This document shows positions 4,256 through 48,637 of a DNA stretch of 64,000 nucleotides, one piece after another. Source of the stretch: Candidatus Bathyarchaeia archaeon (GTDB lineage Archaea > Thermoproteota > Bathyarchaeia > Bathyarchaeales > Bathycorpusculaceae); NCBI GenBank assembly GCA_049512075.1, contig JBEKXL010000007.1, positions 1 through 64,000 of the forward strand. The letters are read 5' to 3'. The notes under the pieces were generated by a model. That model was not told the DNA's origin. It saw only the letters and a list, made by a program, of their open reading frames with translations, and searched no databases. Made by a program: the position numbers and the translations under genes. Position 1 is the first letter of the stretch; every line of letters starts with the position of its first letter.

Positions 4256-4557
4256 CAGACCATCAGTTCCGCTCAAATTTCGCTCGTTTTAAGCTTTGGG
4301 CAGTAGAAAAACGACTTCAAATTCTGGGCAGCTTTTGATTTCACTTGAGGGTTTGAACTGTCATTCTTTTGTAGGTTCTGTAAAGTTGTCGGTTGATGAC
4401 GAACGAATTTCACGATCTATCAACCGAAGACTTGACAGTTCCTGTTGAAACGCGCGCGTATGAAACAACGCTTTTAAGCCAGTTCTGATTTCTGCTCTTT
4501 TTGAACATCAAAGGAAAATGATGAAACATATCCGTACGGTTTCTAAGGTGTATCATC

Positions 4558-4923
4558 ATGAAGAAAAGCTCAATTTTGGGATTAGTAATGGTCCTGCTAA
4601 TCGCAAGTGGCCCAATACTCTACTTTATTCCTAACATAGTTTCATTTTTTCAGTCCATCACTTCTAATCAAACAGATATAACTGTTCAAACTGGAACGAT
4701 AAGTCAATATGAACGTAATGGTATAACGTACAAGTTCCTATGGAAATACTACCTTGATGGTTGGACCTACGGGGACGACACACACTTTTGCTTCGCTGCA
4801 AGCGACGCTGGGCAAATATTGACCTTTCCTTTGCAATTGAATGAGAACTGTACAGCTTATGGGCTAACATTCACCGTAGCTGGAATAAATCATGATAGCA
4901 TCATCATATCTATTAAACAGTAA
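4558..4923 (+). CDS. hypothetical membrane-anchored/secreted protein
   Basis: MKKSS then hydrophobic N-terminus; AT-rich ORF with TATA-like TTTTAAG upstream. Confidence 0.7.
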   Translation: MKKSSILGLVMVLLIASGPILYFIPNIVSFFQSITSNQTDITVQTGTISQYERNGITYKFLWKYYLDGWTYGDDTHFCFAASDAGQILTFPLQLNENCTAYGLTFTVAGINHDSIIISIKQ

Positions 4924-5293
4924 CGCACGCGTCACACGTCGTCATCGCGTCGTCGTAAAAATAATTTAAGCGAGGGTAAAGTTTCATGCCAAAACCGCGC
5001 GCTATTTTTCCGCATACTAGTAGCGAGAAATATGCCCCAAATGTTAATGCGAGTCAACAGTCATGATCAGGCTATGCCTAGCAGGCACACATTGAAAGAA
5101 ACGCATATGCTTGAGGACAGGCTCGCTTTGCCACTGGTAAAGCAGCAAAGAAAGCAAAAGGCTGAGAATGCGCTCTCTGTGCATAACATGGCTGAAGACA
5201 CTGCTACAACGCATCTAAAGAGAGGCTGTGCTTAATTCCTGCTTTCTCACCAATCATCAGCAACATTGTGGAGGTCCAATAACAGCGCGCTCT

Positions 5294-7321
5294 CTAGATT
5301 GCCTTAATCTGAGAGATGCCGTCTTTCTTTTCGACTCTCATGACTTGGTCTGCGAAACTTTCTAGTTCTCTCTCATGCGAAACCATGACCACTTGTGGGC
5401 ATTTGAGTTCGTCAAGTATCTCCCTGATCTTGAACAGTTGTTCTTTGCTGAAGCCGTCTGTGGGTTCGTCAAGGATCAAAAGGTTAGACTTGATTCCTGC
5501 TGAAACCTTCTGCACGATAGTGTTGAGCGAGAGTCTATACGCAAGGGCCAGACTAGTTTTCTCACCGCCACTAAGATAGTTGTAGTCCTGCTCATACCCA
5601 TCCTGCTCAACGATAGGCGTGAAATCCTCATCAATCCGGGAATCCTTGCTAGGATCCTCAACGAGCATTCCCCACCATTTTTGAAAATGCTGATTAAACT
5701 CCTGATTTATGTTCATCATAACATACTTTTCAATCGCCTCTAGGGTTGGCATCAAAAACTCTTCAAGCCAAATCTGATATTCTTTCAGTCTCTCTGCGGC
5801 TTTTCTTTCCTTTTCCTTGTCCCGGATCTCTCTCTCCAGTTCCTCCACCTGATTCGTGAGCATGTCACGCGTCGTCTGAAACTTAGATATCTTATTCTTC
5901 ACCGTGTCAAGCTGTGACCGGGCCTCATCCAGCTCTTCGGACAATGCTGCAGTCTCCCCTAATATTCTGTTGTATTCCTCCACTTCCTGCTGGGCCTTCT
6001 CAAGCTTTTCTCTGGCCTCCCCAACTTGTCCTTTCAGCGCCTCCATCTTCTCACGATGCTTCTCTATTCTCTCCTTGTTTCTCTCCATCCGTTCAGTTAG
6101 ATTTTGCAATCTGTCTCGGGCGCTCTTAAATTGTTGGAATGATTCTTGTAAGGTTTCTATTTCTTTGATTCTTGTTTCGCAGGTGGCGACTTCGTCTGAC
6201 GCCTTGCACTTCTCCTCTTTTTTCAGCTTGATTTTCTCTTCGAACTCACTAGGATCTGCAGGTCTGTCGCAAGTCGGGCAGACTCCATTTTCTCCCACAG
6301 ATTCGTAATCGCTTATCTTTGCGCCTATGACATCCTCCGACGATATGAGTTCTCGCTCTTTCCTTCTCATACTCTCCAATTCCTCTTTCAGTTCAGCTTC
6401 AGTTTTCGGCGTAGGCTGCTGAATCTTGCTCAGCCTATCCGCTTCGGGCTGCAACTTCCCCAATTCTGCAGAAAGCTCTTCCACTTCGCGTTCGAGGCTG
6501 ACTACTTCACCATTCTTCTCCCTGATATGCTTCTCAAGCAGAGGAACTTCACCTACCGCCTTTCCAAGCGCCTCCTTGCTTTTCTGCAGCGAATCGACTT
6601 TCTCCCTCAGCGCATTTACCTTCTCGTCAAGGCTGTCCCTGTTCCCGCTGAGACCTGTCAATTCCTGCTCGCATTTTCCGATCTCCGCCCTTGTTGCGTT
6701 GCATTTTTCTCGACGGCTTTCAAGGTCAGAAGCATGTGAAGCCAGTCTAATCGACTTCTCCTTGATAGACTTCGCCAGAGTTGAAGAATTGTCCAGTGCA
6801 ATTCGATAATCCTCGATCCTGAATGCCTTTCTAAGTGTTTGAAGCCTAGCGTCCGCCCTCATCCAGATAATGGCCTTCATTTCTTCTTGCGGAGTGAAAA
6901 TAGCGTACCTGTAGATGACACTCTGCGCCTTAGGGTCTGCTGGCTCGTTAAAAGCCAGTATATCAAGAACCTTCTCCTTCATCTCAGAGGCCGACAGTTG
7001 CAGTACGGCGCCGTCAGTTTTGAGGCTGCAACCAGACTGCTGGACGCTCTTGGCCTTTCTCTCCAAGCTTCGGCACACCTCATATTCCTTCCCCTCGACT
7101 TCGAAACAGAGACTCACCAGACCTCTCTTTGCCCCTGCCTTGAGCAAGGCTCCTCCTTTCTCTGAACCTAAACCAAAAAGCGCAAATTCTATCGCCATAA
7201 GAACAGTTGACTTTCCCGAACCTATGTCACCCTCAAAAAGAGTCGTCCCCAAGGGAAATGAGACCATCTGCTCAGTGTAGCTTCTGATGTTCTCAAGCTT
7301 CAGCGACCTCAGAATCATCAA
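5294..7321 (-). CDS. rad50: Rad50 (SMC-family) ATPase
   Basis: Walker A GDIGSGKS, coiled coils, CPTC zinc hook, LSGGE, ILDEPT; operon context. Confidence 0.93.
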   Translation of the reverse strand: MMILRSLKLENIRSYTEQMVSFPLGTTLFEGDIGSGKSTVLMAIEFALFGLGSEKGGALLKAGAKRGLVSLCFEVEGKEYEVCRSLERKAKSVQQSGCSLKTDGAVLQLSASEMKEKVLDILAFNEPADPKAQSVIYRYAIFTPQEEMKAIIWMRADARLQTLRKAFRIEDYRIALDNSSTLAKSIKEKSIRLASHASDLESRREKCNATRAEIGKCEQELTGLSGNRDSLDEKVNALREKVDSLQKSKEALGKAVGEVPLLEKHIREKNGEVVSLEREVEELSAELGKLQPEADRLSKIQQPTPKTEAELKEELESMRRKERELISSEDVIGAKISDYESVGENGVCPTCDRPADPSEFEEKIKLKKEEKCKASDEVATCETRIKEIETLQESFQQFKSARDRLQNLTERMERNKERIEKHREKMEALKGQVGEAREKLEKAQQEVEEYNRILGETAALSEELDEARSQLDTVKNKISKFQTTRDMLTNQVEELEREIRDKEKERKAAERLKEYQIWLEEFLMPTLEAIEKYVMMNINQEFNQHFQKWWGMLVEDPSKDSRIDEDFTPIVEQDGYEQDYNYLSGGEKTSLALAYRLSLNTIVQKVSAGIKSNLLILDEPTDGFSKEQLFKIREILDELKCPQVVMVSHERELESFADQVMRVEKKDGISQIKAI

Positions 7322-8571: not shown

Positions 8572-8574
8572 GAT

Positions 8575-10119
8575 TTACCCCACAAAAACCGTCTTGTTCT
8601 TCTCCTTAGGCTGCAGGTTCTCTTCAACGTACTTTTCAAACAATGGTATCTGAATGGGCACGGCAAACCTGGTGAAGTTGCTGCTCACGATGGCCTCACC
8701 CTTATCCAAGCTCGCGATGGTCCTGTCGTCCGATGACAAATCCTGCGCTGCACTCTCCATAACCGCCTGTCTCTCAGCAGCCAGCTCGTTCCCGAGGATT
8801 ATTTTAGTGTTCATGTTAGCCAATATCGCTCTTGGAATCAAGCTGACCAACTGCGTTATCGCGATTAATCCCACCTTGAATTTTCTGCCTTCCCTAGCAA
8901 TGGTACTGTAAATGTTGTCCCCACGCGCGGCAAGCACGTCTGCACCCAGAACTCTCGGCGCCTCCTCAATCACGACACTTACCACGGGCTTCTCTTCCAA
9001 CGTTCCCTCAGACTTGTAAGCTTGATACCGGTGGAAGATTCCGCCTGAAATTATGCTTCCAATGAGTAATTCAGCCTCATCAAGCAGCCTTGACGTGTCG
9101 ATAACAACCTTCTTCCCATCCTCAAGAGCCTTCGCAATTTCCCTGGTGGTAGCCAAGCCAGCGGTGTCGCTGAAAACACCGCTTCTACACTGAAAATCGC
9201 CGCCATCATCAATGAACACGCCGAGCACATTGTCGAACTTCCTCTTCAACACCTCAAGCGTTCTGGGAGCAACAGCATCACCAATATCGGTCCCCCGCAC
9301 AATGTTTTCAATCCACTGGTCCCTGAACCGGTTATAGTACAAGGATATGGCATCATGCTGAGGATCTGTGAACTCAACTATCCCTTGAAAATGTGAAGGC
9401 AAAATCGATCTGAGATTTATTACAAGGGTATTTGTCCCGGCAACAGGGTTCGTGGAATAGTACAGCAAGCTCTGCTTCGCCGCAGAATGGTCCTTCAACC
9501 CCTTACCATGCCTGCCATAGTACTCGTCGTGAGGGTCCAGAACCAATATACCCAGACAATCCTGGGCCAAAACGCTCCACAACATGACCTTGACAAGGTT
9601 GCTCTTCCCCCTTCCAGTCGTAGCCGGAATCAACACGTGATGCGTGAGCATGTCTTTTCCATTAACATAAACGTCCACGTCAAGCACCTTCGACCCGCTC
9701 CTGACTTTTCCAAGATACACAGGGCTTCCCGGCTTAGTAAGAAACAAGAGATCCTTCTCGGCAACGTGCCTGATTGTGGAAAAGAACTTGGGAAGAGTCT
9801 TGGGTATCTTCAGCTCATTGTTCTTGCAGACTCGCAAGAGTGCCTTGATTTGTGCTATAACATAGTTCCGCAGCTGCGGCTCAAGAAAATCCAGGTTAGT
9901 GCCCATGCCCTCAAGCTTCATGCCCGCCAGAAGCTCTCGCACCAGCTGCGGCACTTGGCTCCCATAGACAAGCTCGTAAGCCTGAAGAATCACGTATCCT
10001 CCATCATCTTCCTCAGCCACGAGCAAATCTCCTATCTCTATTTCTCCACCAGCTTTTTCCCTTGCCAATATCTGACCGGTTTTTCCCGCAATTATCTGAC
10101 CTGAAATTTCTAACGCCAT
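8575..10119 (-). CDS. herA: HerA helicase/ATPase
   Basis: [26 protein letters not shown]. Confidence 0.93.
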
Positions 10120-10125
10120 TCTCCA

Positions 10126-11241
10126 TCAACCCTTCAACACGTCTAACACGCTATGCGCGTCACCCGAACAAATATGCCTCGAAATCTTCTTCCACTTGCC
10201 AAGCTTAGATATCTCGGACATAAGCGGTACCCTATACGTATCTATCTCGTCCCCGTTCACTCGAGCAAAGCTGTCCGCATCTATTAGGCCATAAGGATAC
10301 CCCGGAAAGCTTAGGTCTTTTGAATTGTTCGCCAAAGCTGAAGTGACACAGCAGAAGTCTTCCTCACTCATTCGCCTGGCCTGTTCGCCGTAGATTTCGT
10401 ACCTGAAAACATAGTTGGCACTCTCATGCAGCTTGACCACGTATATGAAGGCATTATGCTGCACGTTAGCGACCCTAGCTATCGGTATACACCAAGGGCC
10501 GTTTACCTTGTAGTCTTCGGCCAACTTCTGCACGGCACCCAAGAGTGAAAGACCAGTAGTCGTGAACAGCGTACTCGTTTTTGAAATCCCAGCGAAAATG
10601 ACTCCCTTCTCCATCGCTGCCTCCAACGCCCGCGCCATGTACGTCTGCTCATTAGTTAGACTCGTCTGCAAACTGCCGTCATGGACTATCAAATCACCAT
10701 TCTCAAGCTCATTTTCAATAACATGCTTGGCAAACTCCCACTCAGCGAATCGCCGCGCGACAGAAGCAACATGCCTTATGTCTGCCCTCTGAGTTCCAAG
10801 CGTGACTGTTCTGTCAACGGAACTGAACGACAAGTGCCTATCTTCAGGAATCAAGCCCTCGAGCTCAACTCTCAAAGGAAAGAGTCGGGTATCATAGAAT
10901 ATTTCGTCATTTCTAAAATCAGACATTGTAGCAGAATAGAACTCTATCCTTCTAGGCAAGGACTTGGGGAGGATTCTGTCCCGCCCCTTGAAGATGTTGA
11001 AGTATATCCTATTTATCTGAGCCGAGAAGTTGGGTGCACCGAGTATTTCTTGGTTTCCGCCGTCCACGAAAGCCGTGCGGATTTTCGGTTCGGCATCTTT
11101 GATCAGAACGAAACTCGCAGGAGGAAAAGGCAATGTTTCATAGCCTGGATTGCCGAAATACGGTTGACCCACATCTTCCTCCCCTATCTTCGAGTCCAAA
11201 AACTCGGCGATTCTCTTAAAAACCTCCGCGGACATTTGCAC
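10126..11241 (-). CDS. nurA: NurA 5'-3' nuclease
   Basis: VDGG, E, DGSL, ISK, GYPYGLIDA motifs; first gene of herA-mre11-rad50 operon. Confidence 0.9.
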   Translation of the reverse strand: MQMSAEVFKRIAEFLDSKIGEEDVGQPYFGNPGYETLPFPPASFVLIKDAEPKIRTAFVDGGNQEILGAPNFSAQINRIYFNIFKGRDRILPKSLPRRIEFYSATMSDFRNDEIFYDTRLFPLRVELEGLIPEDRHLSFSSVDRTVTLGTQRADIRHVASVARRFAEWEFAKHVIENELENGDLIVHDGSLQTSLTNEQTYMARALEAAMEKGVIFAGISKTSTLFTTTGLSLLGAVQKLAEDYKVNGPWCIPIARVANVQHNAFIYVVKLHESANYVFRYEIYGEQARRMSEEDFCCVTSALANNSKDLSFPGYPYGLIDADSFARVNGDEIDTYRVPLMSEISKLGKWKKISRHICSGDAHSVLDVLKG

Positions 11242-11796
11242 GTCACACGATGTATTCTGAATTCCTTCGTTAAAAGCATATTCTTAACGAAGATAGCAAG
11301 ATTCTCGAGGTCACCGACACGCGCTAAACCATTGTTATTTGTACTGCCTTCTTTTTAGCCCACGAAGTATTAGCTTGTCGGAGCAGACAATATGACGTTA
11401 ATCTTAAAGCGACCGCGCTGGTCGGCGTGGCGTGCCTAGCTGATATGTCGGACAACGTAGAAAATGTTTTAAAGAGGCAATCCAAACGCTCAAGAACAGT
11501 TTCAAATTGTTTTCTTTGAGTGTCAAATTGGCCATGAAGATTATCAGAGTCTGAGAAAAAAGCCACTGCTTGCAGCAAGACATCGTCTTCTCAGTTTCCG
11601 GCACTTGAGTTTTTTTCAACCTCGTAGCGTGCGCCAATATAATCATTGTCTGAGAAGTTTCGCGATGAGCCAGGGGTTTTGAAAAGGAAAAAATGGGACA
11701 AGCATTGGCGTAATCTAAGCTTGGAAAGAAAAAGAGCTGCGATTTGAGCCCGACCCATTGGGGAGACACGTCTCGCGCATCTGGATCCGAAATCGC

Positions 11797-12201
11797 TTAC
11801 TTGGCCACTTTGGTCACGAAGTGAATCGAGAAAAGGTGACCCGCGTAGGAAATAGGTACGAGAATGACTGTCGTGTCCACCGTTTCACCGCCTTTCTTCT
11901 TGAATGTCAACTGGCTGGTTGAGGCTACCATTTTCTTCATTGCTTCCCAGTAGGCTGAAGATAGTGTTTCCCGACTTTTCTCGGCGACATACACCTCCAG
12001 AAAACCTGGTATTCCAGCCCACTCCTGTGGCGACTTGAAGCCCAAAAGAGCTGCAAATCTGCTGTTACAGGCTTTGTGATTGTCGTCTAGGTAGAGGAAA
12101 ATCGGCTGCTCTGACGAATCCATGATTACCTTCATCTGATCGTAAAGCCCCTTCACGAGCTCCTCGTGATGTACCTCTGATGTTTGCGTTTTTTTCGACA
12201 T
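11797..12201 (-). CDS. PAS-like domain hypothetical protein
   Basis: IMDSSEQPIFLYLD...CNSRFAALLGF resembles a PAS fold. Confidence 0.65.
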   Translation of the reverse strand: MSKKTQTSEVHHEELVKGLYDQMKVIMDSSEQPIFLYLDDNHKACNSRFAALLGFKSPQEWAGIPGFLEVYVAEKSRETLSSAYWEAMKKMVASTSQLTFKKKGGETVDTTVILVPISYAGHLFSIHFVTKVAK

Positions 12202-12303
12202 TATTTCTTCACCTCCACTATCATCTTGATCGAATTTTCGAATGTATTCTACTGTTTCTTGAGATTCAAAAAAGGAGAAAAATCTGGAGTTGTCGTTCGG
12301 TTT

Positions 12304-12696
12304 CTACTTTCTCGCTGTCTTCTTTGCATGCTCGCTGATCTGATGCACCTCTTTAGTGAAAGTGTCATAGTTGTATTGCAGGGCGTGTAGCATTGCGCTC
12401 CATCTTGCCGTGTAACTTGCAAGAAACGCCACTTCAGCCATTTCATCCTGTGTGGCACCATTGCCAACGGCCATTGCCGTGTGCATTAGGGAGCAGTAGG
12501 GGCATTTGATGTTGGCAGAGATTGCCAGTCCGATGAATTCACGGTATTTGGCTGGAATCTTGGACTCTCCAAGCTGGTATTTCTTCATTAAGGGCCAGTC
12601 TTGCATCAACACGTCCTTTGGAATGGCTTTCATGAAGCCGGGAACAATTCCAAACGTCTGCTTGATGTCTTCAAGGGTATCCTCATATTTTCCCAT
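12304..12696 (-). CDS. carboxymuconolactone decarboxylase/AhpD-family protein
   Basis: KYREFIGLAIS...KCPYCSLMH. Confidence 0.9.
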   Translation of the reverse strand: MGKYEDTLEDIKQTFGIVPGFMKAIPKDVLMQDWPLMKKYQLGESKIPAKYREFIGLAISANIKCPYCSLMHTAMAVGNGATQDEMAEVAFLASYTARWSAMLHALQYNYDTFTKEVHQISEHAKKTARK

Positions 12697-12786
12697 TATG
12701 ATTCACCTCCTACTAATCTTGTGCCACGTTCCCCATTAGCGCGCGCGATTTTTCTTCACTGATTCACTCACAACGTGTATGAGTGC

Positions 12787-12963
12787 CTACGCTTCCTTGA
12801 TCAATTTCTTTAGTTCTGATTGCGGAGTGTTCAACATTTCAGGGTGGTGTTTCTTTGCGTGCATCATCGAATGTTCCATTATGTCGTCTTCTCCAAAGGG
12901 GGTCTTGACTGTCCATCCGCATCCTGGGCATGTGAACATCTTCATTTTGCCTTTGCTCATCAT
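12787..12963 (-). CDS. small zinc-binding protein (DUF1059-like)
   Basis: CPGCGW...HAKKHH; start adjusted to ATG after GGAGGTG RBS. Confidence 0.75.
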   Translation of the reverse strand: MMSKGKMKMFTCPGCGWTVKTPFGEDDIMEHSMMHAKKHHPEMLNTPQSELKKLIKEA

Positions 12964-12976
12964 ATCACCTCCATCG

Positions 12977-13381
12977 TCATTCATGAGTCACATGAAGTTG
13001 GTTGGAAGCTTGCTTCTTCCTTAGCTTTCTAAGGCCTTTTTCTGTAAGGCATTTACCGTGAGTCGGACAGTATTTTTGGGAATGAAAAGTAAACAGTTTA
13101 AAAAGAGGCTCCACTGTTTCGCGGTTTAATGAGTAGATACGTTGTTTTTCCTTTCTTTCTGAGAAAACAAATCTGCATCTTTCCAGAGTTGTCAAATTAT
13201 GAGATATCATACTCTGTTCTTGCTTCAGGCTTTCTGCAATTTCTGTAACGCTTCTTGGTTTCTCGCGTAGAACCTCTAGAATCGCCAGTCTTGTTGGATT
13301 TGCCAGAGCTTTAAAAAACACGTAGCATATCTCGGATAGTCCTCGCTTCATCCACGTCAACTCACATGCCAACTTCTTCAT
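12977..13381 (-). CDS. ArsR/SmtB transcriptional regulator
   Basis: FKALANPTRLAIL...SVTEIA...QSMISHNL. Confidence 0.92.
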   Translation of the reverse strand: MKKLACELTWMKRGLSEICYVFFKALANPTRLAILEVLREKPRSVTEIAESLKQEQSMISHNLTTLERCRFVFSERKEKQRIYSLNRETVEPLFKLFTFHSQKYCPTHGKCLTEKGLRKLRKKQASNQLHVTHE

Positions 13382-13398
13382 ATGACAAGTTCTTCATG
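13380..13398. promoter_or_regulatory. possible ArsR-type operator
   Basis: Imperfect palindrome ATGAcaagttctTCAT between TATA-like TTATAAG and arsR start. Confidence 0.35.
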
Positions 13399-13467
13399 CT
13401 TATAAGCCTTTCCAGTGGCGCATGCCGTTCTCCAAAACTGGCCAGTAGAATCAGCCCGCTCAGTGAC

Positions 13468-14724
13468 TCAGAAAAGCGCGCGCTTGTTTCCGTTTTCTTG
13501 TCCAGATGTTTGTTCTGGGGTAGGCGAATGTGTTTCGGCGTGCGCTCGTTTCTGGCTTGAAACCTTCGTGAAAAGAACAGGAATAATCAGCGCGAAGGCA
13601 AGCACTGCCATGTAAAGCCATGCGGGCGAGTATCCGTACTGTACCACCAAGTAAGAAAAGAGCAGCGGAGGAAAAGAATCACCGAACAGAGAGATGCTGT
13701 TCACCCAGCTGACAGCCAGCGTTTCGTATTCCTTGTCAAGCCTGTTAGCCGCTCTCGCTGCGGAGAAGCCGAAAGTGAACCCAGTTCCAGCTGCCAAGCC
13801 GACTAGGACACCGGCCAAGATTGCCGAATAGACTGTACCAAAGAAAGCTACGCCCACCCCGACAGCCATAAGGACACCTGAGGCCAAGAGCAGCTTCTTC
13901 GTATTACCATACCTGTCAAACAGCCTCCCGGCGAACGGAGCCGATGCGAGCGCAAAGAGCGAGACCAACGACGCGATTGCTCCGGCCTCTCCGACATTCA
14001 CGTTAACCACGCTCTCAAGGTAGTAAGCCATGAAACTGCTGTAAACAGTCGACCCCACCTGAAGACCCAACATCGCAACCGACAGCACGATCAGCCACTT
14101 GTCCAGCAGAACGAGCCTCAAGTGACGGAGTTCCACCGTGAAGTCCGAGCGTCGACTATCCTTCGGCACCAGAAACCACAGCAAGACAGACGTGAACAAA
14201 CCAAGTAAACCACCCGTCACCAGACTATTCCTCCATCCGACCCCTGCCGCCAGCACCGCCAAGCCAGAAAGCCCCACGGCACCACCAAGACTGAAAGCCG
14301 AATTATAAAGTCCCACACCCAACCCCTCCGACCCCTCATGCAAAAACCTGGCCATCAGAATAACACCCGGAGCGAACACAAAAGCCATGCCCAACCCGAC
14401 AAAAAACCGAAGAACCGCTATTTCGACCAGATTGCCAGCGAAACCAGTCAACAACGCAGCCAAAGATGCAATAGCCGTTCCATATATCGCCGTCAGTCGC
14501 GGACCAATCTTCGCCGCAAGAATCCCACCCGGGACCTGAAAAACCCCAATGCCAACGAAGAATGTGGCCGTCACCAAACCAAGACCAGAAACATTCTGAT
14601 TCAGCTCAGACGCCGTGAAGGTGAACACAGCGGCCAAGCTGTACCAGTTCACCGCATAGACGATTCTGCCCAAGATCAAGGACGCGACTGCAGCCCGATT
14701 GCCTACACCTCTACCCACGCCCAT
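13468..14724 (-). CDS. MFS transporter
   Basis: About 12 TM segments; motif A GILAAKIGPR and GRLFDRYG. Confidence 0.92.
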   Translation of the reverse strand: MGVGRGVGNRAAVASLILGRIVYAVNWYSLAAVFTFTASELNQNVSGLGLVTATFFVGIGVFQVPGGILAAKIGPRLTAIYGTAIASLAALLTGFAGNLVEIAVLRFFVGLGMAFVFAPGVILMARFLHEGSEGLGVGLYNSAFSLGGAVGLSGLAVLAAGVGWRNSLVTGGLLGLFTSVLLWFLVPKDSRRSDFTVELRHLRLVLLDKWLIVLSVAMLGLQVGSTVYSSFMAYYLESVVNVNVGEAGAIASLVSLFALASAPFAGRLFDRYGNTKKLLLASGVLMAVGVGVAFFGTVYSAILAGVLVGLAAGTGFTFGFSAARAANRLDKEYETLAVSWVNSISLFGDSFPPLLFSYLVVQYGYSPAWLYMAVLAFALIIPVLFTKVSSQKRAHAETHSPTPEQTSGQENGNKRALF

Positions 14725-15208
14725 CAGTCTAAACTCCCCTCGAGACCTCCGCAGACTCGTTCAAGCCTGTATACTCAAGGTTAAAACAGAGACATCTAAA
14801 TCTTCTCGAGCGCGCAGGCGCTTCACATGCTCCCGCGTTGACGCCTAAAATAGGGAATGAAAGCAGACCTGATGCTAGTACAGGACTCATTCTACCACTT
14901 CATATTCGCGTTCAAGTTGCAAGCGGAGCTTTCGTCCTCATTCTCCTTCAGCGTAAAAAGACAAAATCGATTTTGGCTCCGACGTAACAGACCGAAGCCA
15001 ACGTGATTAAACTTTTCTACATCTCCTAAGGCTGCCTTGAACTAGCTTCGTGACATGGAATTAAAGGCGCATGGGTCTGCGTACGATTCTTTCTAGGTGA
15101 GTTGGTCTCTGTCACGAACAGCCAGCTGACAGTGGCCAGACTCGGCACTGCTTCACAAGGCATAACTAGTGAAGCGTTAAAGTTGTAAGCTCGTAGAGGA
15201 GGAGACAG

Positions 15209-17366: not shown

Positions 17367-17368
17367 GA

Positions 17369-37557: not shown

Positions 37558-37629
37558 GCGCGCGTGGTGTGCGTTAGCTATAAAAGGCGAAGGTTTGTTA
37601 TTATGAATTGTTGAAGCTTGGGAAATCAT

Positions 37630-39055: not shown

Positions 39056-39074
39056 ACTCGCGCGCTGTTACAGA

Positions 39075-43506: not shown

Positions 43507-43816
43507 TAGCGCGCGCTGGCCTGTCCCGAAATTGGTCTAAAATGGTTCTAATTCTTCTTTTGCCTTTTTATGCTCAATTTGAGCTTGTTTGACAGGTAGA
43601 TCTTGGCCGTTTTGAGGGGTGGTGAATAATGGGAGCTTCGCAGATCCTGCGGGAAGTGGGGTTTTCCCATAACACGTGGAGGCTGCACTTGGCCCGCTTG
43701 GAACGTCAAGGCATGATCGTGAAAGCTAACAGCGCATGCGCCTCAAAACTGCCCCCAAACCCCAAAAAAGGAATAAACACCGTTTTTAACCATTTTAGGG
43801 ACAAGCCAGCGCGCTA
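43507..43816 (+). mobile_element. GCGCGC-bounded wHTH mini-element copy 5 with both TIRs
   Basis: TAGCGCGCGCTGGCCTGTCCCGAAATTGG ... CCATTTTAGGGACAAGCCAGCGCGCTA; interior QILREVGFSHNTWRLHLARLERQG joined to CAPQNCPQTPKKE*. Confidence 0.85.
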
Positions 43817-43881: not shown

Positions 43882-45000
43882 CTATAGTGCTAGATTGAGC
43901 AGTTCGGCAACGTCCATGATTTGGATTTTGCCCTCTGCCCCTGTGGTCTTGACAGCATCTTCGAATGTTAATAGACAGTACGGGCAGGCTGTAGCGAGGA
44001 TGTCTGCTCCAGCTTCAACAGCGTCTTTCACGCGGGTTTCCGCTAAGCGTGGACCCGGAATGTCAACCCACATCCTTCCTCCGCCTCCTTCGCAGCAGAC
44101 GCTTCGGGCTCGGGAACGGTCGAACTCCAACAGTTTGACGCCTGGCACGCTTTCGATGACTTTTCTCGGTTCTTCGTAGATGCCATTTTGTTTGCCCAAG
44201 AAGCACGGGTCGTGATAGATGACTTTCTTGTTCACTTCCTTCGATAAGGTGAGCTTTTTCTCGTTAATCAGTTTGGCAAGCAGTTGCGTGTGGTGTTGGA
44301 TCTCGAAGCTTGTCTGGTTGTACCTGTTCTTGAACGCGTGATAACCGTGTGGACAGCTTGTCACTCCTTGCTTTACGTTGTATTTGTTGAAGGTTTTCAT
44401 GTTCTCTTCAACTAGGAAGTCGAACAGGCCTTTTTCTCCCATGCCGTAGACTTCGCTTCCGCAGCAGTTTTCTTCGTCGCCTAGGACACCGAAGTTCAAT
44501 CCGGCGTTTGCAAGGACACACGCTAAGCTCCTAGCGACACTTTGGACTCGCGGATCATAAGCCGGGGTACAACCGACAAAGTATAGAATGTCTGCACCCT
44601 GAGACATGTGTTTAAGGTTCAGGCCTTGAGCCCATTCTGACCTTTTGTTGCGGATTCTTCCCCATGGGTTGCCGTTCTTGAATATGCTTTCTAACGCGTC
44701 TCGGATTGTCGGTGCGATTTGTCCTTCCTCAACCGCCATGCCGCGAACGTCAATCAAAAACTCGTATGGGTTCAAATCCTTTGGACAACGGACGCCGCAT
44801 GCACTGCAGGTTGTGCAGCTCCACAGCTCATTCTGCGAATGCTGTGTCAGCTTGCCCATTGTGGCAACTTCTCGCATGTACTTCCTAACGTTTAAGTTGG
44901 CTTTACGCGCAACTGGGCAGCTTCCCGTGCATGTTCCGCACTGGATGCATTCGAGGAGCTTATGTTTCTGAGTGAGCTCTTGAGCGTTCATATTGTCCAT
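43882..45000 (-). CDS. HdrD-like Fe-S oxidoreductase (2[4Fe-4S] plus CCG domains)
   Basis: CIQCGTCTGSCP, CTTCSACGVRCP, ENCCG, YHDPC, CCEGGGG, TACPYC; start adjusted. Confidence 0.9.
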   Translation of the reverse strand: MDNMNAQELTQKHKLLECIQCGTCTGSCPVARKANLNVRKYMREVATMGKLTQHSQNELWSCTTCSACGVRCPKDLNPYEFLIDVRGMAVEEGQIAPTIRDALESIFKNGNPWGRIRNKRSEWAQGLNLKHMSQGADILYFVGCTPAYDPRVQSVARSLACVLANAGLNFGVLGDEENCCGSEVYGMGEKGLFDFLVEENMKTFNKYNVKQGVTSCPHGYHAFKNRYNQTSFEIQHHTQLLAKLINEKKLTLSKEVNKKVIYHDPCFLGKQNGIYEEPRKVIESVPGVKLLEFDRSRARSVCCEGGGGRMWVDIPGPRLAETRVKDAVEAGADILATACPYCLLTFEDAVKTTGAEGKIQIMDVAELLNLAL

Positions 45001-45088
45001 CACTTTTAGTTGAATGGGGAGCATAAGATTATTAAAGCGTTTTCCCGTGAATTGTTTGAAACATATCCTGGAAAAGGAGATTTCACCG

Positions 45089-47455
45089 ATGGAGAAGAAA
45101 TCGCCCAAGATAGGCGTTTTCGTCTGTGAATGCGGCGGCAACATAGGGGAAGTTGTGGATGTCAAGGCAGTTGTTGACACTGTCAAGACATGGGACGGTG
45201 TTGCCGTAGCCAAATATCACAAGTATTTATGCTCAAAACCGGCTCAAGAAATGATTCTTGACGCCGTGAAAAAGGAAAATCTAGACCGGGTTGTGGTTGC
45301 AAGCTGCACGCCTCGTATGCATCTTGCCACTTTTCAGAGTGTTTTGGAACGAGCTGGTCTAAACCAGTTTATGCTTGAATTCGTGAACATAAGGGAGCAA
45401 GACTCATGGATATTGGGACCGCATCCTTCGCCGGAAGCGACGAAGAAAGCTATCAGTCTAATAAGAGGTGGTTACGAGAGAAGTCGCGAGCTTGAGCCGC
45501 TGCAGCTCATAAGCGAGAAGGGCTCCAGAGAGATACTCATTATCGGCGGAGGCATCTCAGGTATAACTTCTGCCCTTGAGCTTGGATATTTGGGTTACAA
45601 GGTTGACCTTGTTGAAAGAAAGTCCAGTATCGGCGGCAACATGGCCAAACTGACCAAGGTTTTTCCCACTTTGGATTGTGCACAGTGCATTTTAACGCCA
45701 AGGATGGCGGAAGTGGGCAGAAACACAAACGTTAACCTATACACCTACGCTGAAGTGCAAGAGGTCAGCGGAAGACCGGGCAACTACGATGTAAAAATAC
45801 GCATGAAGCCGAGAGGCGTTGACGTTCAGAAGTGCAGAAGCTGCGGTGTCTGCGCGAAAGTTTGTCCGGTAACGGTTTCAGACGAGTTTAACGAGGGTTG
45901 GTCGCAACGGAAAGCAGCCTACATCGAGTTTCCACAAGCCGTGCCCTCAGCCTACACCATTGACTTCAGCGCGTGCACAAAGTGCGGAAAATGTGAGCAG
46001 CTTTGTCCAGCCAAGGCCATAAGCTTGGCAGATCCGGGAAGCACAGTCGACCTGCACGTTGGTGGCATAATAGTGGCCACTGGCTATCAGCTCTATGACG
46101 CTAAGAAACTTGAAACCTACGGCTATGGCACATACAAAGACGTAATCACAATGATGGACCTGGAGCGGTTCGTCTCTGCAACTGGGCCAACAGGTGGCTA
46201 CATCAAGAAAGCTGACGGCACCGATGTTAAACGCATGGCAATAGTGCTCTGTGCAGGCTCACGGGACAAGAACTACATCTCGTACTGCAGTAGGATCTGC
46301 TGTATGTATTCTTTGAAGCAGGCTTTTGTGCTGAAGAAGATGCTCGGCATAGACGTGAGCATTTACTACACTGACATCAGGGCAACGGGCAGGGGATACG
46401 AGGATCTCTATTGGCGTGACCAGGAAGCTGGTGTCACCTTTATCCGTGGCAAGGTGGCGGAGGTGTACAAGAACGCCAAGGATGGCAAGCTCGTTGCTGT
46501 TGCGGAAGATACGATAACAGGCGAGGTGACCGAAGAAGAGTTCGACATGATTGCTTTGGCCACGCCTATGGTTCCGCCCACAGGGTTGAAGGAACTTGCT
46601 GAGAAAATGAAAGTCAGCATCAGTGAAGACGGGTTCGTCACGGAGAAGCATCCTAAACTCGACCCTGTTGATTCGCTAGTCACTGGTATCTTCGCATGCG
46701 GCTGCGCGTTGGGTCCCAAAGACGTCAGAGACACGGTTTCGGATGGCTTGGCCGCCTCAGCTAAAGCGGCATTGTTCCTGAAGAGCGACTACGTTACGAC
46801 AAGCCCCGAGAAAGCTTTCGTCATCAGCGACTTGTGCAACGGCTGCAATGCCTGTGTGCCAACCTGTCCGACAAACGCCATAAGCATGCAAGACGGGAAA
46901 GCCAAGATTGACCCGTTCCTGTGCACAGGTTGTGGCGCATGCATACCCGTCTGTCCTCAAGAAGCCATTGACTTCAAGAATGCGACGACTAAGCAGATAA
47001 CTGCAAGTCTGAGAGGAGTACTGGCAGAAAAGCAACCGGGCGAAGTCAGAGTCGTCGCCTTCGTAGACAAAAACGTTGGTTACACAGGCATGGACTTCTT
47101 AGGCCTGGACCGCACAAACTATCCTGAAAACATCCGCATCGTACCCGTTCCCACCACCGCCATCCTAGGCTTGAAACATCTGCTTTACGCATTCGCATAC
47201 GGAGCTGACGGTGTTCTGGTCATCGAAGGAACACAGGAAATTGATGAAAAGTTTACGAAGAAGAAAATGATCGACATGGGAAGGGAATTGGCCAGATACA
47301 ATGTTGAAAGCATGAGAGTGCGCTACAGCTACGTGCCCCTCCCAGTTTACAAGAAGGCTGCGGAGCTATTCACAATGTTCACGGATAGGATAAAGAAATT
47401 CGGACCGTTTCCAGAAGAAAAACGCTGCGAGATAAAACAGAAGCTTGGCCTGTGA
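45089..47455 (+). CDS. hdrA: HdrA fused to a Cys-less MvhD-like domain
   Basis: CECGGNI, SCTPRMH, KVFPTLDC, CAGSR, CSRICC; C-terminus GYTGMDFLG...YPENIRIV...GADGVLV. Confidence 0.9.
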   Translation: MEKKSPKIGVFVCECGGNIGEVVDVKAVVDTVKTWDGVAVAKYHKYLCSKPAQEMILDAVKKENLDRVVVASCTPRMHLATFQSVLERAGLNQFMLEFVNIREQDSWILGPHPSPEATKKAISLIRGGYERSRELEPLQLISEKGSREILIIGGGISGITSALELGYLGYKVDLVERKSSIGGNMAKLTKVFPTLDCAQCILTPRMAEVGRNTNVNLYTYAEVQEVSGRPGNYDVKIRMKPRGVDVQKCRSCGVCAKVCPVTVSDEFNEGWSQRKAAYIEFPQAVPSAYTIDFSACTKCGKCEQLCPAKAISLADPGSTVDLHVGGIIVATGYQLYDAKKLETYGYGTYKDVITMMDLERFVSATGPTGGYIKKADGTDVKRMAIVLCAGSRDKNYISYCSRICCMYSLKQAFVLKKMLGIDVSIYYTDIRATGRGYEDLYWRDQEAGVTFIRGKVAEVYKNAKDGKLVAVAEDTITGEVTEEEFDMIALATPMVPPTGLKELAEKMKVSISEDGFVTEKHPKLDPVDSLVTGIFACGCALGPKDVRDTVSDGLAASAKAALFLKSDYVTTSPEKAFVISDLCNGCNACVPTCPTNAISMQDGKAKIDPFLCTGCGACIPVCPQEAIDFKNATTKQITASLRGVLAEKQPGEVRVVAFVDKNVGYTGMDFLGLDRTNYPENIRIVPVPTTAILGLKHLLYAFAYGADGVLVIEGTQEIDEKFTKKKMIDMGRELARYNVESMRVRYSYVPLPVYKKAAELFTMFTDRIKKFGPFPEEKRCEIKQKLGL

Positions 47456-47682
47456 ACAGAGCCCTCACTTCTTCGGATTCAGAACCATAAAGCCTCCTTT
47501 TTGTCAATACCATGTTTGGATCAGTAGACCAACGGTAGGGTACGTCGGTGCACACACAACGAAAACCTGAGAGCCTTCAATAGCGCGCTAAATCATTTGT
47601 AACAACTGCTCGCGCTTTTGGAATGACCAGTGATGAGAGTTGAGCGTGCGAGGTGTGAAATCGGTCGAGCTGAAAAGAGCGT

Positions 47683-47940
47683 TTAAGTGCTAGTGACTAT
47701 TTCTGCTCCTGCGGCTACAGGTCCTGACGTCGTGATTTTGATTCTTAAATGGTCTCCGGGCTTTGCGTTACCAACGAAAACTGGGAAACCCTTGATTCTG
47801 CCTATGCCTTCCCCTTGAGGGCTTGTTTCGGTTATATCCACTTCGTATTCTTTTCCAGTCTCAACTGGGCAGTTCTGAACGCCTCTGCCACGTTTGCTCT
47901 TGGCATTTCTCGGGCTTCTTTTTCGCGGGCTCATTGGCAT
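47683..47940 (-). CDS. single TRAM-domain protein
   Basis: PVETGKEYEVDI...GEGIGRIKGFPVFV..AKPGD. Confidence 0.9.
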   Translation of the reverse strand: MPMSPRKRSPRNAKSKRGRGVQNCPVETGKEYEVDITETSPQGEGIGRIKGFPVFVGNAKPGDHLRIKITTSGPVAAGAEIVTST

Positions 47941-48637
47941 CTTCCTTTTTCTGCTTTTATGATGATATGATTATCGCCCCTCAGTGGCTTAAATGTTCCG
48001 CATTTTACTGCTCGCGCTAACCCAATTGAAAGTGCAATAATCTATCTAAAGTCCATATTCAGGAACGGCCCCCCATCTTCTTTCGTTTGCAATTGAGACG
48101 AAAATTCAAAACCCACTCACCTCCCCATCAAAGGGTCAGGAAGACAATCATAATCCTTTTTCCAGATAGGCTTTCGATTCACATAGGCAGAATAGGCATC
48201 GCCCACTTTGCAGGCTTCTCGCAGGGAAAACCCCTATCTTCAATGTGTACGAGACGGAACTTGAGGAAAAATGGTCGGCGCATCCGTTAGATTTGTTGCT
48301 TCTGGTTCATACTGATGGGAAGAAAATTCATCGGAGATCGGTTGCTTTGTTCCGCAAGGATATACTTCAATGTCAGGAACTCTGAACGTTATGAAGATAG
48401 AAAAAGAGAAACAGGGCTTCCAGAAAGAGGGTTCCCGAAACAAGGCGTTCAGACTGACATCTTTGGAGAAAAAGGAAGAAGACCAATAGCGCGCGCGTAG
48501 GTTCAAGCCACGCTAAAAGAGAGTTGCAACCCTTCTCAAGGACAGCTGAGTACTGCCGCGCGTGGCGCTAAACGTGAGCACATATCAAGTAAACCTTAAA
48601 CATAACCACAAAGTCCTATTCAAGTCGGTGAAAGGCT

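Follow-up and report, generated by a model that had tools for sequence, protein, structure and literature searches.

GC palindromes between archaeal genes, probable tips of an IS5/IS1182-like transposon family, coincide with genome breakpoints

The question raised by the 64,000-nt stretch of Bathyarchaeia DNA analysed here (the window) is why the palindrome GCGCGC recurs between its genes; an earlier note had read it as the core of a cassette integration and shuffling system. The motif occurs 42 times in the window when overlapping matches are counted, compared with 14.7 expected from 100 dinucleotide-preserving shuffles (s.d. 3.6, largest 25), none of which reached 42. These matches form 34 distinct runs (counted by hand from the match list), 24 intergenic and 10 coding according to our own crude gene calls. 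All 25 exact positions given in the note are present in the sequence, as are five near-variants: CGCACGCG at 4924, immediately 3′ of a stop codon, CGCGC at 11318 and 48012, GCGTGCGC at 18596 and CGCGCG at 48557. The impression that only a handful are coding also holds, as nine further sites (17077, 21326, 25774, 31275, 35375, 48978, 52371, 57304 and 57970) all fall within ORFs by the same calls; the run at 13476 is coding as well, in the final codons of the MFS gene. In the two long operon-like stretches, the runs at 31275, 35375, 52371, 57304 and 57970 sit inside ORFs and not at gene junctions.

Genome-wide distribution

The source genome (G000; 2.73 Mb, 86 contigs) has 2,325 genes by our own gene caller and is 76% coding. 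GCGCGC has the highest observed/expected ratio of any hexamer (1.49, maximal-order Markov model), and its intergenic density (1,529 sites, 2.38 per kb) is 14.4 times its coding density (344 sites, 0.165 per kb). Among 13 other G+C-rich palindromes used as controls, this ratio was 0.56–1.75 for twelve; CGCGCG, which overlaps longer (GC)n runs, has a ratio of 12.8. The intergenic excess is thus specific to the motif, and no other alternating dinucleotide run is enriched genome-wide. There are 1,227 distinct runs of at least three GC units, 944 of them intergenic. Even lengths of 6, 8 and 10 that start with G and end with C predominate; at length 8, 229 runs have this sense and 28 the opposite. 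The TA flanks described earlier are real but only partial: among intergenic half-sites, 48% have T at +1 and 38% have A at +2, with no conserved base beyond.

Runs are spread over all four kinds of intergenic region, and neither arrays nor a fixed distance to gene starts were seen. Their normalised density peaks 0–60 nt past stop codons (2.1–3.6 per kb) and is low (0.2–1.4 per kb) over the 60 nt that immediately precede starts. A T tract within 30 nt is absent at 801 of 939 runs, and a search around the runs found no flanking complementarity, hairpin or extended imperfect palindrome.

The motif at transposon tips

Repeats of about 1.1 kb, located on other contigs, encode an ORF with DDE_Tnp_1 (E = 5 × 10−12) and DUF772 (E = 1 × 10−8) domains and end in GCGCGC-TGGCTTGTCCCTAAATT inverted repeats. 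The (GC)3–5 run is the outermost part of the TIRs of this IS5/IS1182-like DDE transposon and of its 160–310 bp MITEs. The same tip is present on IS copies of G003, G033, G001, G004, G036, G002 and G032, that is, at seven of nine loci examined; the pattern search did not find it at the G023 locus or at the locus on contig C39 of G000, where the left tip is degenerate (GCACGC). The bit scores of the transposase lie under the curated NCBIfam cut-offs for IS1182 (86 versus 270) and IS5 (69 versus 140). The contig that contains the window has no transposase copy, in agreement with the earlier statement that the window encodes no recombinase.

The source genome contains 56 TIR pairs, in size classes of 162, 172, 184, 212, 305 and about 480 bp, and 273 TIR-like half-sites; one BLAST family takes in 120 of 2,442 half-sites. 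In self-BLAST, the ends of repeats of up to 600 bp stack at offsets 0 to −2 from the outer run edge (222, 219 and 217 HSP ends, versus fewer than 15 at most other offsets). Elements often carry TA flanks, and TA is usually the insertion target: 61 of 129 TIR-bearing tips have TA as their outer flank, and in 72% this flank begins with T. One clean empty site was found, at which a MITE follows TA in the source genome (C1:117494) and G002 has TA without a run.

Elements and tips have spread within the genus. The 12-mer TAGCGCGCGCTA has 16, 3, 9, 10 and 23 copies in the five genomes of the genus and 10 in G033, and is missing from 30 of 41 relatives searched; the reversed control gave 0 in every genome. 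The transposase family was found in seven of the eight genomes with at least two 12-mer hits, whereas 6 of the remaining 33 have a match, each at 28–42% identity. Because the genomes compared are kin, these co-occurrence counts are not independent.

Three MITEs lie within the window. The 172-bp element at 19602–19773 has TIRs that begin with GCGCGC (GCGCGCTAGAGCATTGCTAAAT ... ATTTAGCAACACGCTAGCGCGC) and GA on both sides; copies that align end-to-end with 19602–19775 at 72–89% identity occur on contigs C4, C16 and C9 of the source genome and in G001, G002 and G004. The 214-bp element at 26476–26689 belongs to the main family, begins GCGCGC-ATGCGTGTTCCTAAAATGGT and is flanked by TA on both sides. 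It has a 95% identical copy in G004 (C9:64723–64936), and many loose ends of other metagenome contigs begin exactly at 26474–26475 and 26687. The element of about 306 bp at 43509–43816 (GCGCGCGC-TGGCCTGTCCCGAAATTGG ... GGGACAAGCCA-GCGCGC), also between two TAs, shares its TIR with the transposase-bearing 1.1-kb IS copies, and copies matching 43511–43816 occur in G001, G002 and G004. A partial element at 18443–18602 has a left TIR (TA followed by GCGCGCATGCTTGTTCCGAAATTGG) and terminates at the degenerate run GCGTGCGC; about 155 bp of it (query 2641–2797) are repeated on contig C2 of the source genome and in G004. A lone right-end TIR (37384–37414, reverse complement GCGCGCATGCGTGTTTCTAAATTGATCAAAA) lies within a 297-bp segment that G002 does not have.

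Breakpoints between related genomes

Gains, losses and exchanges of DNA between related genomes fall at runs far more often than expected by chance, which was the central prediction of the earlier note. When 700 kb of a same-genus genome was compared, 50 of 220 block ends in G000 lay within 3 nt of a run (4.2 expected), and 78 of 220 lay within 3 nt of a run in either genome; homology breakpoints thus cluster at the outer run edge, as repeat ends do. A run or one-mismatch run marks the junction in 17 of 35 short alleles, and run density is 1.97 per kb in G000-specific intergenic DNA versus 1.07 per kb in aligned intergenic DNA. A 14.3-kb contig of strain X7 (98–99% identical) agrees with this: it falls into four pieces on the window, with segments swapped at runs. 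Five of its eight piece ends (12741, 19488, 19766, 23594 and 25466) have a run no more than 9 nt away; at 26501 the contig itself stops, within the MITE at 26476–26689, and 14885 and 18625 lie about 70 nt from the nearest run.

Several such variable segments lie in the window. Solitary runs at 4452, 4997 and 5285, together with the degenerate CGCACGCG at 4924, bracket a small ORF (4558–4923) and a 288-bp spacer (4452–5290 overall), near which homology blocks begin at 5293 (G002) and 5278 (G004). The segment at 11304–13483, which encodes an ArsR-type regulator, a CMD-family protein and an unknown ORF, has 2,180 bp in G000 versus 118 bp in G002; it ends on the right at the run 13476–13483 and contains the run 12739–12746, and X7 strain contigs join or break at 12741–12744. 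Between 14809 and 19768 (4,960 bp versus 3,115 bp in G002) lie an Eco57I/N6 methylase and XamI-type restriction endonuclease (15786–18337), DUF996, scraps and the 172-bp MITE, with boundary runs at 14810 and 19768 and internal runs at 18443, 18696, 19480 and 19602; X7 has other DNA in place of 14886–18624 and 19489–19765. The stretch at 21836–26691 has no syntenic counterpart in G002. It encodes an HtrA-like protease, a NosD-like protein and a flavodoxin, contains runs at 21961, 23580, 25475 and 25558 and has the 214-bp MITE at its right end; 23595–25465 is replaced in X7. The earlier gene labels DUF996, S9 peptidase, NosD and MFS are correct (Pfam), but the S9 peptidase is not a mobile unit, as it lies in a conserved block of the syntenic backbone that separates variable slots.

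Further along, no two genomes agree in the content of the slot at 37247–37563, which the run at 37558 adjoins: where G000 has 297 bp, G002 has the 6 bp GCGTGC, G003 about 490 bp and G004 about 4.4 kb. The solitary run 39060–39065, between convergent genes, corresponds to GCGC in G002 and to inserts of about 2.0 kb in G004, which includes a PF01555 methyltransferase match, and about 2.3 kb in G003. The segment 42437–43864, with a DUF4177 ORF, the run at 43246 and the ~306-bp MITE, is replaced among genomes, its length ranging from about 297 bp in G004 through 1,428 bp in G000 and 1,798 bp in G002 to about 5.5 kb in G003. At 47480–48572, about 1.1 kb that is present in G000 and G002 is represented in G004 by 62 bp with GCGCGCG; this segment contains runs at 47583 and 48489, near-runs at 48012 and 48557, and a TRAM-domain ORF on a 509-bp piece that is duplicated on contig C36 at 98% identity.

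The variable segments do not behave as cassettes that are each bounded by a site. Among 94 segments of at least 60 bp, 64 are without a run within 12 nt at either end, 26 have one and 4 have two, compared with about 3 two-run segments predicted by independence. Runs more often occupy the 'empty' allele than flank a variable segment on both sides, and in 9 of 14 events a run-bearing short allele stands opposite a long allele without a run or TIR at either end. In one polarised case, a 776-bp stretch that is present in G002 and the outgroup G004, and holds an ORF of about 205 codons, is replaced in G000 by acCGCGCGCGt, with no run at either ancestral junction. Opposite events were observed too, including a 1,144-bp insertion into an ancestral run and a 575-bp insertion at the middle of a run (GGCGC^GCGCTT), and four events pair a run-X-run allele with a single run. 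In none of the 35 events in 700 kb does an intact MITE in one genome face a clean TA(GC)nTA at the same locus of the other. Of the reading in the earlier note, the intergenic motif and the breakpoints at it stand, whereas integron-like cassettes bounded by the site and cassette arrays are not supported.

Solitary runs and their possible origin

About 810 intergenic runs are solitary, with no neighbouring repeat and no TIR trace beyond the run. Because only 148 of 944 intergenic runs meet a detectable repeat end (784 touch none), we infer, rather than observe, an element origin for most runs. Solitary runs are longer than TIR tips (lengths 6, 8 and 10 starting with G: 188, 211 and 79 of 903 solitary runs versus 95, 17 and 3 of 135 tips), consistent with two partial tips having fused. 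TA(GC)3TA, TA(GC)4TA and TA(GC)5TA occur 12, 15 and 9 times in intergenic DNA versus 0, 1 and 1 times in coding DNA; TAGCGCTA is not enriched. The left and right flanks of solitary runs vary independently.

The explanation that we favour, on balance, is that the palindromes are TIR tips of one ~1.1-kb IS5/IS1182-like family and its MITEs, and that the solitary runs would be the remains of lost elements, as putative footprints of the transposase. Loss of an element would leave a solitary run (about 800 cases), either through excision and joining of the self-complementary tips or through a deletion that removes the element between its terminal runs, whose palindromic sequence makes them direct repeats of each other. 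Run edges may stay prone to breakage because the transposase would cut there, and adjacent DNA would therefore be repeatedly deleted, replaced or inserted. Selection would exclude scars from genes and promoters, so that they would pile up after stops and 60–100 nt upstream of starts, where they would resemble module boundaries. Several observations speak against this explanation, among them the small share of runs that meet a repeat end, the failure to find a MITE facing a clean scar, the long alleles free of runs and TIRs, and the transposase scores under the curated cut-offs. Simple footprints with a TA duplication should often be flanked by TA on both sides, but only 28 of 810 solitary runs are, as expected from independent flanks at 19%; and the 776-bp case would need several steps (insertion, flank deletions and element loss), of which no intermediates were seen. 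Ku, which is invoked for the end joining, also counts against it: G000, G002 and G004 have the protein, but none was found in two run-rich genomes, G003 (93% complete) and G033 (98%).

Alternative explanations

A run-specific nuclease, restriction-like (BssHII-type, G^CGCGC) or other, for which transposon tips are simply extra sites, is an unlikely cause. The cohesive ends of any two sites would be religated, and flanks would therefore be swapped, segments deleted or inserted and the site regenerated. This would account for runs that are kept at junctions while flanks change independently, for TIRs truncated exactly at the inner run edge and for the run-X-run alleles; N4/N6-type methyltransferase matches in all five genus genomes, and run changes in G002 that are mainly CpG-type transitions, also point this way. 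However, a C5 cytosine methyltransferase (PF00145) exceeds the cut-off in none of these five genomes, the PF01555 enzymes are at most candidates for a GCGCGC-specific methyltransferase, and the window has a single identified restriction enzyme, of XamI type, which recognises a different site. Coding DNA does not avoid GCGCGC, its density there being on par with control palindromes; runs at both ends of long alleles are rare, the 776-bp deletion had no ancestral run at its junctions, and lengths of 8–10 and odd lengths are unlike a religated 6-bp site. The scarcity of two-run segments, at the level that independence predicts, also makes it very unlikely that the palindrome is the crossover core of a dedicated site-specific recombination system (integron-like, or run by some unknown recombinase, for example a solo Cas1), even though modules are gained, lost and replaced at the motif and the run-X-run alleles and both insertions into runs would suit such a system. 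The 6–10 bp core has no extended site structure, arrays are absent, the inserted segments have no common ends and transposon tips already supply the motif.

Fragile non-B DNA, in which Z-DNA-prone GC runs are hypermutable microsatellites that grow by slippage and break independently of the transposon, is quite unlikely. (CG)n tracts are fragile in other organisms, and run length is unstable here: among 31 intergenic runs in blocks aligned with G002 (overall identity about 95%), 7 have indels, 12 have substitutions and 12 are unchanged. The greater length of solitary runs and the clustering of breakpoints are also accounted for. Slippage does not, however, predict the G-start/C-end bias, the T/A flanks, the 8-bp run that arose de novo at the 776-bp deletion or the failure of other alternating dinucleotides to be enriched. 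By presence and absence, the motif is also limited to genomes with the IS family, and relatives in the same family and order are without it, just as 30 of the 41 relatives are without the 12-mer. The peak of density after stop codons might indicate a host signal selected at gene boundaries (a transcript 3′-end element, an insulator or a protein binding site), but this is highly improbable given runs with no fixed spacing, T tract or flanking complementarity, which are poorly conserved in G002 and missing from most relatives; no Rfam family was found in the window.

Comparison with known systems

The transposon origin that we favour places the motif closest to IS5-family elements and MITEs, the prokaryotic counterparts of PIF/Harbinger-Tourist elements. 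Shared features are the DDE_Tnp_1 and DUF772 transposase, TIRs of about 25–30 nt, a short TA-type flank and many short non-autonomous intergenic copies that are present or absent among relatives. Unlike in that family, the tip here is a self-complementary alternating GC run, bare tips are about six times more numerous than elements (903 versus 135), and the transposase falls under the curated cut-offs. We know of no report of solitary tip remnants of IS5 elements, and the portions of the literature reached by our search describe none. Excision footprints of Tc1/mariner and hAT elements and solo LTRs, known from eukaryotes, similarly leave terminal bases between target copies or a single terminal repeat, and the 36 intergenic TA(GC)3–5TA sites resemble them; most scars here, however, are without TA on one or both sides, and no element/scar pair was found at one locus.

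As with integron attC cassettes, modules that lack a promoter or consist of a single gene are gained and lost at a short conserved core located at gene boundaries, but there is no attC-like palindrome, array, adjacent integrase or two-sided module boundary. Yeast mitochondrial GC clusters and short palindromic repeats of algal organelles (as in Dunaliella) are likewise G+C-rich, palindromic, intergenic mini-elements with A+T target flanks, and they are reportedly hotspots of deletion and recombination. They are structured organelle elements of 30–50 bp with no known transposase, whereas the unit here is 6–10 bp, in an archaeal chromosome, and tied to an identifiable IS family. REP/BIME sequences (with RAYT transposases) and cyanobacterial HIP1 are also highly iterated short palindromes; REPs are hairpins of 20–40 nt and HIP1 is abundant also within genes, whereas here there is no hairpin beyond the run and no coding enrichment. 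The motif has a concrete source that was out of view for the earlier note, namely the TIR tip of an IS5/IS1182-like family and its MITEs.

Enrichment of alternating GC runs between genes

The window contains GCGCGC at every exact position listed in the earlier note, and the five near-variants named there are all present; nine further sites lie inside open reading frames (ORFs). Overlapping matches number 42, equivalent to 34 distinct runs (tallied by hand), compared with 14.7 (s.d. 3.6) in dinucleotide-preserving shuffles of the window, of which 0 out of 100 reach 42. Across the source assembly (G000; 2.73 Mb, 86 contigs, 47.5% G+C), in which the window is C7:1-64000, GCGCGC (1873 sites) ranks first among hexamers by observed-to-expected ratio (1.49, maximal-order Markov model). 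Its density is 2.38 per kb in intergenic and 0.165 per kb in coding DNA (a ratio of 14.4); the intergenic preference that had been judged by eye extends to the whole genome. Thirteen further G+C-rich palindromes were counted: twelve have intergenic-to-coding ratios of 0.56 to 1.75, and CGCGCG, an overlapping match in longer runs, has 12.8. Genes were called with a purpose-made, crude caller based on ORFs and codon usage (2325 genes, 76% coding), which overlooks genes such as 43882-45213 and 54238-55449 of the window and therefore somewhat inflates the ‘intergenic’ counts; the 14-fold contrast far exceeds the error from missed genes.

We define a run as an alternating (GC)n tract with n of at least 3. 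G000 has 1227 distinct runs, 944 of them intergenic; n is 3 in 680 runs, 4 in 451, 5 in 93 and 6 in 3. Among alternating G/C tracts, those of even length with G first and C last prevail (229 versus 28 at length 8). Flanking positions carry T at +1 in 48% and A at +2 in 38%, with nothing conserved further out. TA(GC)3TA, TA(GC)4TA and TA(GC)5TA occur 12, 15 and 9 times in intergenic DNA compared with 0, 1 and 1 times in coding DNA; TAGCGCTA is not enriched. Runs are found in all four intergenic orientations, more often in convergent regions (38%) than in tandem or divergent ones (29–31%). Normalized for available sequence, they are densest within 60 nt downstream of stop codons (2.1–3.6 per kb) and sparsest in the 60 nt before starts (0.2–1.4 per kb); at 60–100 nt upstream they reach about 2 per kb. 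The fixed spacing that the earlier note had linked to a regulatory or terminator role was not seen, as run density shows no sharp peak relative to genes.

Runs at the tips of a transposon family

Some runs continue into roughly 30 nt of conserved sequence, such as GCGCGC-AT-GCTTGTTCCTAAATTGGT, and one BLAST family unites 120 of 2442 half-sites. These sequences are terminal inverted repeats (TIRs), which form 56 pairs in G000 with size classes of about 162, 172, 184, 212, 305 and 480 bp in addition to copies of about 1.1 kb. The 1.1-kb copies carry a transposase ORF, which copies of 131–500 bp lack, and the TIRs are common to both. The encoded protein has DDE_Tnp_1 and DUF772 domains; at G000:C39:6582-7628 the frame is uninterrupted over 349 codons (349 amino acids; PF01609, E = 5.2e-12, 46 bits with a cut-off of 23; PF05598, E = 9.8e-9). 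Its best NCBIfam matches, both below cut-off, are IS1182 (85.7 bits, cut-off 270) and IS5_4 (69.2 bits, cut-off 140). The contig of the window carries no copy of the transposase; other contigs do. Within the window are miniature elements (MITEs) at 19602-19773, 26476-26689 and 43509-43816, a partial element that starts at 18443 and a lone TIR at 37384-37414.

When G000 was compared with itself using BLAST, the ends of short repeats clustered exactly at the outer edge of runs (offsets of 0 to -2). The same GCGCGC tip is present on the insertion sequence copies of G001, G002, G003, G004, G032, G033 (from another genus) and G036, which make up 7 of the 9 loci examined. TA adjoins the outer flank of 61 of 129 TIR-bearing tips, and many pairs have TA on one side only. 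At one clean empty site, G002 has TA without a run where G000 has a MITE (C1:117494); as the run is also present on every element copy, we consider it unlikely to be a duplicated target site. The best-supported reading is that the (GC) runs are transposon tips. Elements of the IS5 type and their MITEs are already well known; the self-complementary alternating tip is unusual.

The elements and their tips are restricted to genomes that bear the motif. A 12-mer from this family, TAGCGCGCGCTA, has 16 copies in G000, 3–23 in each of the four other genomes of the genus, 10 in G033 and 1–3 in five more genomes. It is present in 11 and absent from 30 of the 41 relatives searched, which were retrieved by means of a conserved protein and are titled Candidatus Bathyarchaeia or Bathyarchaeota metagenome-assembled genomes (MAGs); a reversed control gave 0 copies everywhere. 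Seven of the eight genomes with at least two copies of the 12-mer have a transposase match, a co-occurrence only, as these genomes are kin and not independent. Identity is 79–100% in six of the seven and 44% in G002, the match of which represents a second transposase subfamily with the same tip. In the other 33 genomes, transposase matches were found in six, all at 28–42% identity.

Homology breakpoints cluster at runs

Alignment of 700 kb of G002 with G000 gave 114 blocks (at least 500 bp in length and 85% identity) that cover 509 kb. For 50 of the 220 internal block ends, a strict run in G000 is no more than 3 nt away, compared with 4.2 expected for random intergenic positions; this upholds the suggestion in the earlier note that breakpoints fall in the motif. 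The corresponding number is 39 for runs in G002 and 78 for runs in either genome, and the first 300 kb of G002 alone give 23 of 94 (1.7 expected). Run density is 1.97 per kb in G000-specific intergenic DNA, 1.07 per kb in aligned intergenic DNA and 0.14–0.18 per kb in coding DNA. The claim that the motif delimits cassettes did not survive this comparison: of 94 long alleles, 64 have a run at neither end, 26 at one end and 4 at both, and because only these 4 have runs at both ends, the variable segments are not motif-bounded cassettes.

We identified 35 short/long events, in which one allele is at most 30 bp and the other at least 60 bp in length. The short allele has a run at the junction in 14, a run with one mismatch in 3 and neither in 18. 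The long alleles opposite the 14 run-bearing short ones have a run at neither end in 9 cases, at one end in 3 and at both in 2. Several of the 18 run-less events, some within coding sequence, look like ordinary insertions with target duplications of 5–9 bp, and presumably reflect other insertion sequence or MITE families that are active in the genus. Insertions of this kind, with duplications of AAAAGTTTT, ACAAG, ATCGAAG and GGATT, are found at G002:C14:19262-20627, G002:C3:43074-46142, G002:C3:150051-151500 and G000:C16:8987-9486, and the event at G2C3 50063 can be read in the same way. The event at G2C14 73608 was set aside as unrelated to runs: here a tRNA gene of G002 carries an integrated 1.3-kb element (G002:C14:73608-74931, locus L023) at its 3′ end, which is duplicated. 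The G000 counterpart is C7:89491-89518, and G001 has 1.1 kb of other DNA at this tRNA position. Another difference between the two genomes lies in a coding region, where the copy number of a 15-nt tandem repeat (GAAGAGAAGGTTACA-like) varies (G002:C14:56278-56338 versus G000:C7:71558-71588). Paralogous genes at 53001-54123 and 55442-56564 of the window share the same operon-like stretch at 66% DNA identity.

Insertion, deletion and replacement at individual loci

Two events could be polarized using outgroups. At G000:C21:12215-13360, a 1144-bp segment interrupts a position at which G002 and G003 have a run; G004 is likewise short and shows a decayed, GT-rich stretch. The segment was inserted into an ancestral run, of which only C...GCG is left. 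At G000:C13:24736/24748, a 776-bp stretch with an ORF of about 205 codons, which is found colinear in G002 and, at 84% identity, in G004, is replaced in G000 by acCGCGCGCGt. Neither junction of the long form has a run, and in this case the run appears at a deletion. Four further events (window 37246-37544, C16:18315, G2C3 65497 and G2C2 202275) gave no direction because the slot is filled with different DNA in each genome; that at 37246-37544 measures 6 bp, 297 bp, about 490 bp and about 4.4 kb in different genomes.

We also compared contigs from four other metagenome runs with positions 10001-30000 of the window. A 14.3-kb contig from one of these (X7), with 23–55 differing letters per piece of 2–4 kb, matches the window at 12741-14885, 18625-19488, 19766-23594 and 25466-26501, with 4310, 1090 and 1033 bp of other DNA between the matches. 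Five of the eight piece ends (12741, 19488, 19766, 23594 and 25466) lie within 9 nt of GC runs; the nearest run to 14885 and to 18625 is about 70 nt away, and 26501 is the end of the contig itself, inside the MITE at 26476-26689. Segment replacement beside runs continues among near-identical strains. Short joints at MITEs in the metagenome contigs, with sides of 20–46 nt, represent other MITE copies or assembly links and not excision.

Positions 15786-18337 of the window (minus strand) encode a two-gene restriction-modification module, which consists of an Eco57I/N6-type methylase (526 amino acids) and a XamI-family restriction endonuclease (322 amino acids, E = 6.6e-113); the module belongs to a segment that the syntenic place in G002 lacks, and lies inside 14886-18624, which is replaced in strain X7. 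The insert of G004 at window position 39060 holds a methyltransferase match. A 509-bp piece with a TRAM-domain ORF (85 amino acids) is duplicated at 98% identity between window 47616-48124 and G000:C36:5405-5913, and G004 carries a copy with 93% identity at another place. The duplicated piece adjoins a CGCGC near-run on the left and no run on the right.

Solitary runs

A repeat end was detected at only 148 of the 944 intergenic runs; another 12 fall within a repeat, and the remaining 784 have no contact with one. No TIR residue was found beside the solitary runs (solos) in G000, and these bare tips exceed the elements by about six-fold. The commonest forms among 903 solos are G8 (211), G6 (188), two 9-mers (164) and G10 (79), whereas G6 accounts for 95 of 135 tips. 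As solos are longer than tips, a simple collapse to one tip, similar to the formation of solo LTRs, does not fit. TA is present on 19% of the sides of solos and on both sides in 28 of 810, which equals the expectation under independence. In the 700 kb compared between G002 and G000, 0 of the 35 short/long events pair an element with a scar at one locus with both flanks aligned; the nearest approach is G2C2 166814, at which a solo run is opposite 144 bp with one TIR. We infer that most solos are the remnants of lost elements.

In blocks that align to G002 at about 95% identity, 12 of 31 intergenic runs of G000 are unchanged, 12 are substituted (mostly by transitions) and 7 have indels. With so few unchanged, purifying selection on the runs is not visible, and new ones must keep arising. 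Decay is asymmetric, with 12 G000 runs substituted in G002 compared with 3 G002 runs changed in G000. The changes are mostly CpG-type transitions (GCACGC, GCGTGC and ACGCGC), and G002 junctions often read GCGCACGC or GCGTGCGC; cytosine methylation followed by deamination in one lineage may explain the asymmetry.

Proposed origin of the runs and rival explanations

In the explanation that we favour, transposon tips would supply the runs and lost elements would leave solos; cutting by the transposase at run edges would turn these positions into lasting hotspots of deletion, insertion and replacement. Selection would leave scars only outside genes and promoters, giving the look of module boundaries. 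Several observations count against this account: no locus pairs an element with its scar, the two flanks of a solo vary independently and in most cases differ from TA, nine short alleles with a run are opposite long alleles without one, and the 776-bp case on C13 needs several unseen steps. Also against it, Ku was not found in G003 and G033, whereas it is present in G000, G002 and G004; a necessary role for Ku-dependent end joining is thereby weakened. The Ku homologues of these three genomes (PF02735, E of about 1e-41, above cut-off) are at G000:C16:6054-6590, G002:C3:47133-47669 and G004:C9:92481-93017, and Ku was detected in only 6 of the 41 related Bathyarchaeia genomes searched.

A candidate nuclease specific for runs, with religation of the cut ends, would account for flanks that vary independently and for a run that survives, but no such enzyme was identified. 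As to a cognate cytosine methyltransferase, PF00145 is above cut-off in 0 of 5 genomes of the genus and PF01555 has matches in 5 of 5, of whatever specificity. GCGCGC also lacks the under-representation expected of a type II restriction-modification site: it is the most over-represented hexamer, and its coding density equals that of the control palindromes. Structural fragility or slippage could create runs but leaves the phase bias, the flanks and the phyletic pattern all unexplained, and general dinucleotide slippage was rejected as no other alternating dinucleotide is comparably enriched in G000. The integron-like system proposed in the earlier note is contradicted by flank complementarity at background (0.22–0.27) at offsets 2 to 12, by information of at most 0.03 bits beyond +2, by the spread of runs over 29–38% of all four intergenic orientations genome-wide and by runs at both ends in only 4 of 94 long alleles. 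Integron attC sites surround their core with imperfect inverted repeats that extend over tens of bases, which the runs lack; REP/BIME units have a hairpin of 20–40 nt and a RAYT (Y1) transposase, whereas the runs have no hairpin beyond their own 6–10 nt.

Regulatory readings are contradicted as well, given that runs are poorly kept in G002, patchy among relatives and without sharp spacing or flank structure. TTTTAA-like boxes about 25 nt from some runs prompted a promoter or initiator reading, which was rejected as the adjoining 30-nt sequences are the inverted-repeat ends of multi-copy elements. Divergent promoters were rejected also because convergent regions bear runs at least as often (131 of 346 versus 125 of 424 divergent regions). 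A terminator or hairpin was rejected on the flank test, in which the surroundings of runs in G000 showed neither complementarity nor a T tract, and no Rfam family was found in the window at the gathering score.

A bolder proposal, which we consider improbable, is that the bare (GC)3–5 palindrome is itself an active recombination site in this genus, with about 900 sites repeatedly broken either by an insertion sequence transposase acting on minimal, abutted tips or by a run-specific nuclease. The run would be consumed at insertion and written at deletion, and the slots would exchange genes and defence islands between strains. What is unusual is the approximately six-fold excess of bare tips and the tight link to strain-level gene turnover, with at least one deletion that leaves a new run. 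Literature listings, which allow only a weak statement, yielded nothing on MITEs of Bathyarchaeia or on GCGCGC as a motif of archaeal intergenic DNA.

Implications

On the favoured explanation, the motif calls for caution by annotators, as it is neither a promoter nor a terminator. Two puzzles stand out: a gene-sized deletion replaced by a fresh GC run, and solos that outnumber elements by about six to one. The runs would offer a natural case for studying how archaea rejoin DNA after transposon excision. If the favoured explanation is true, the genus records hundreds of past transposon visits as scars of 6–10 bp, and these scars coincide with whole-gene differences between strains, including the restriction-modification pair of the window. 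They would then mark the flexible genome of Bathyarchaeia MAGs in a way that is easy to read from sequence.
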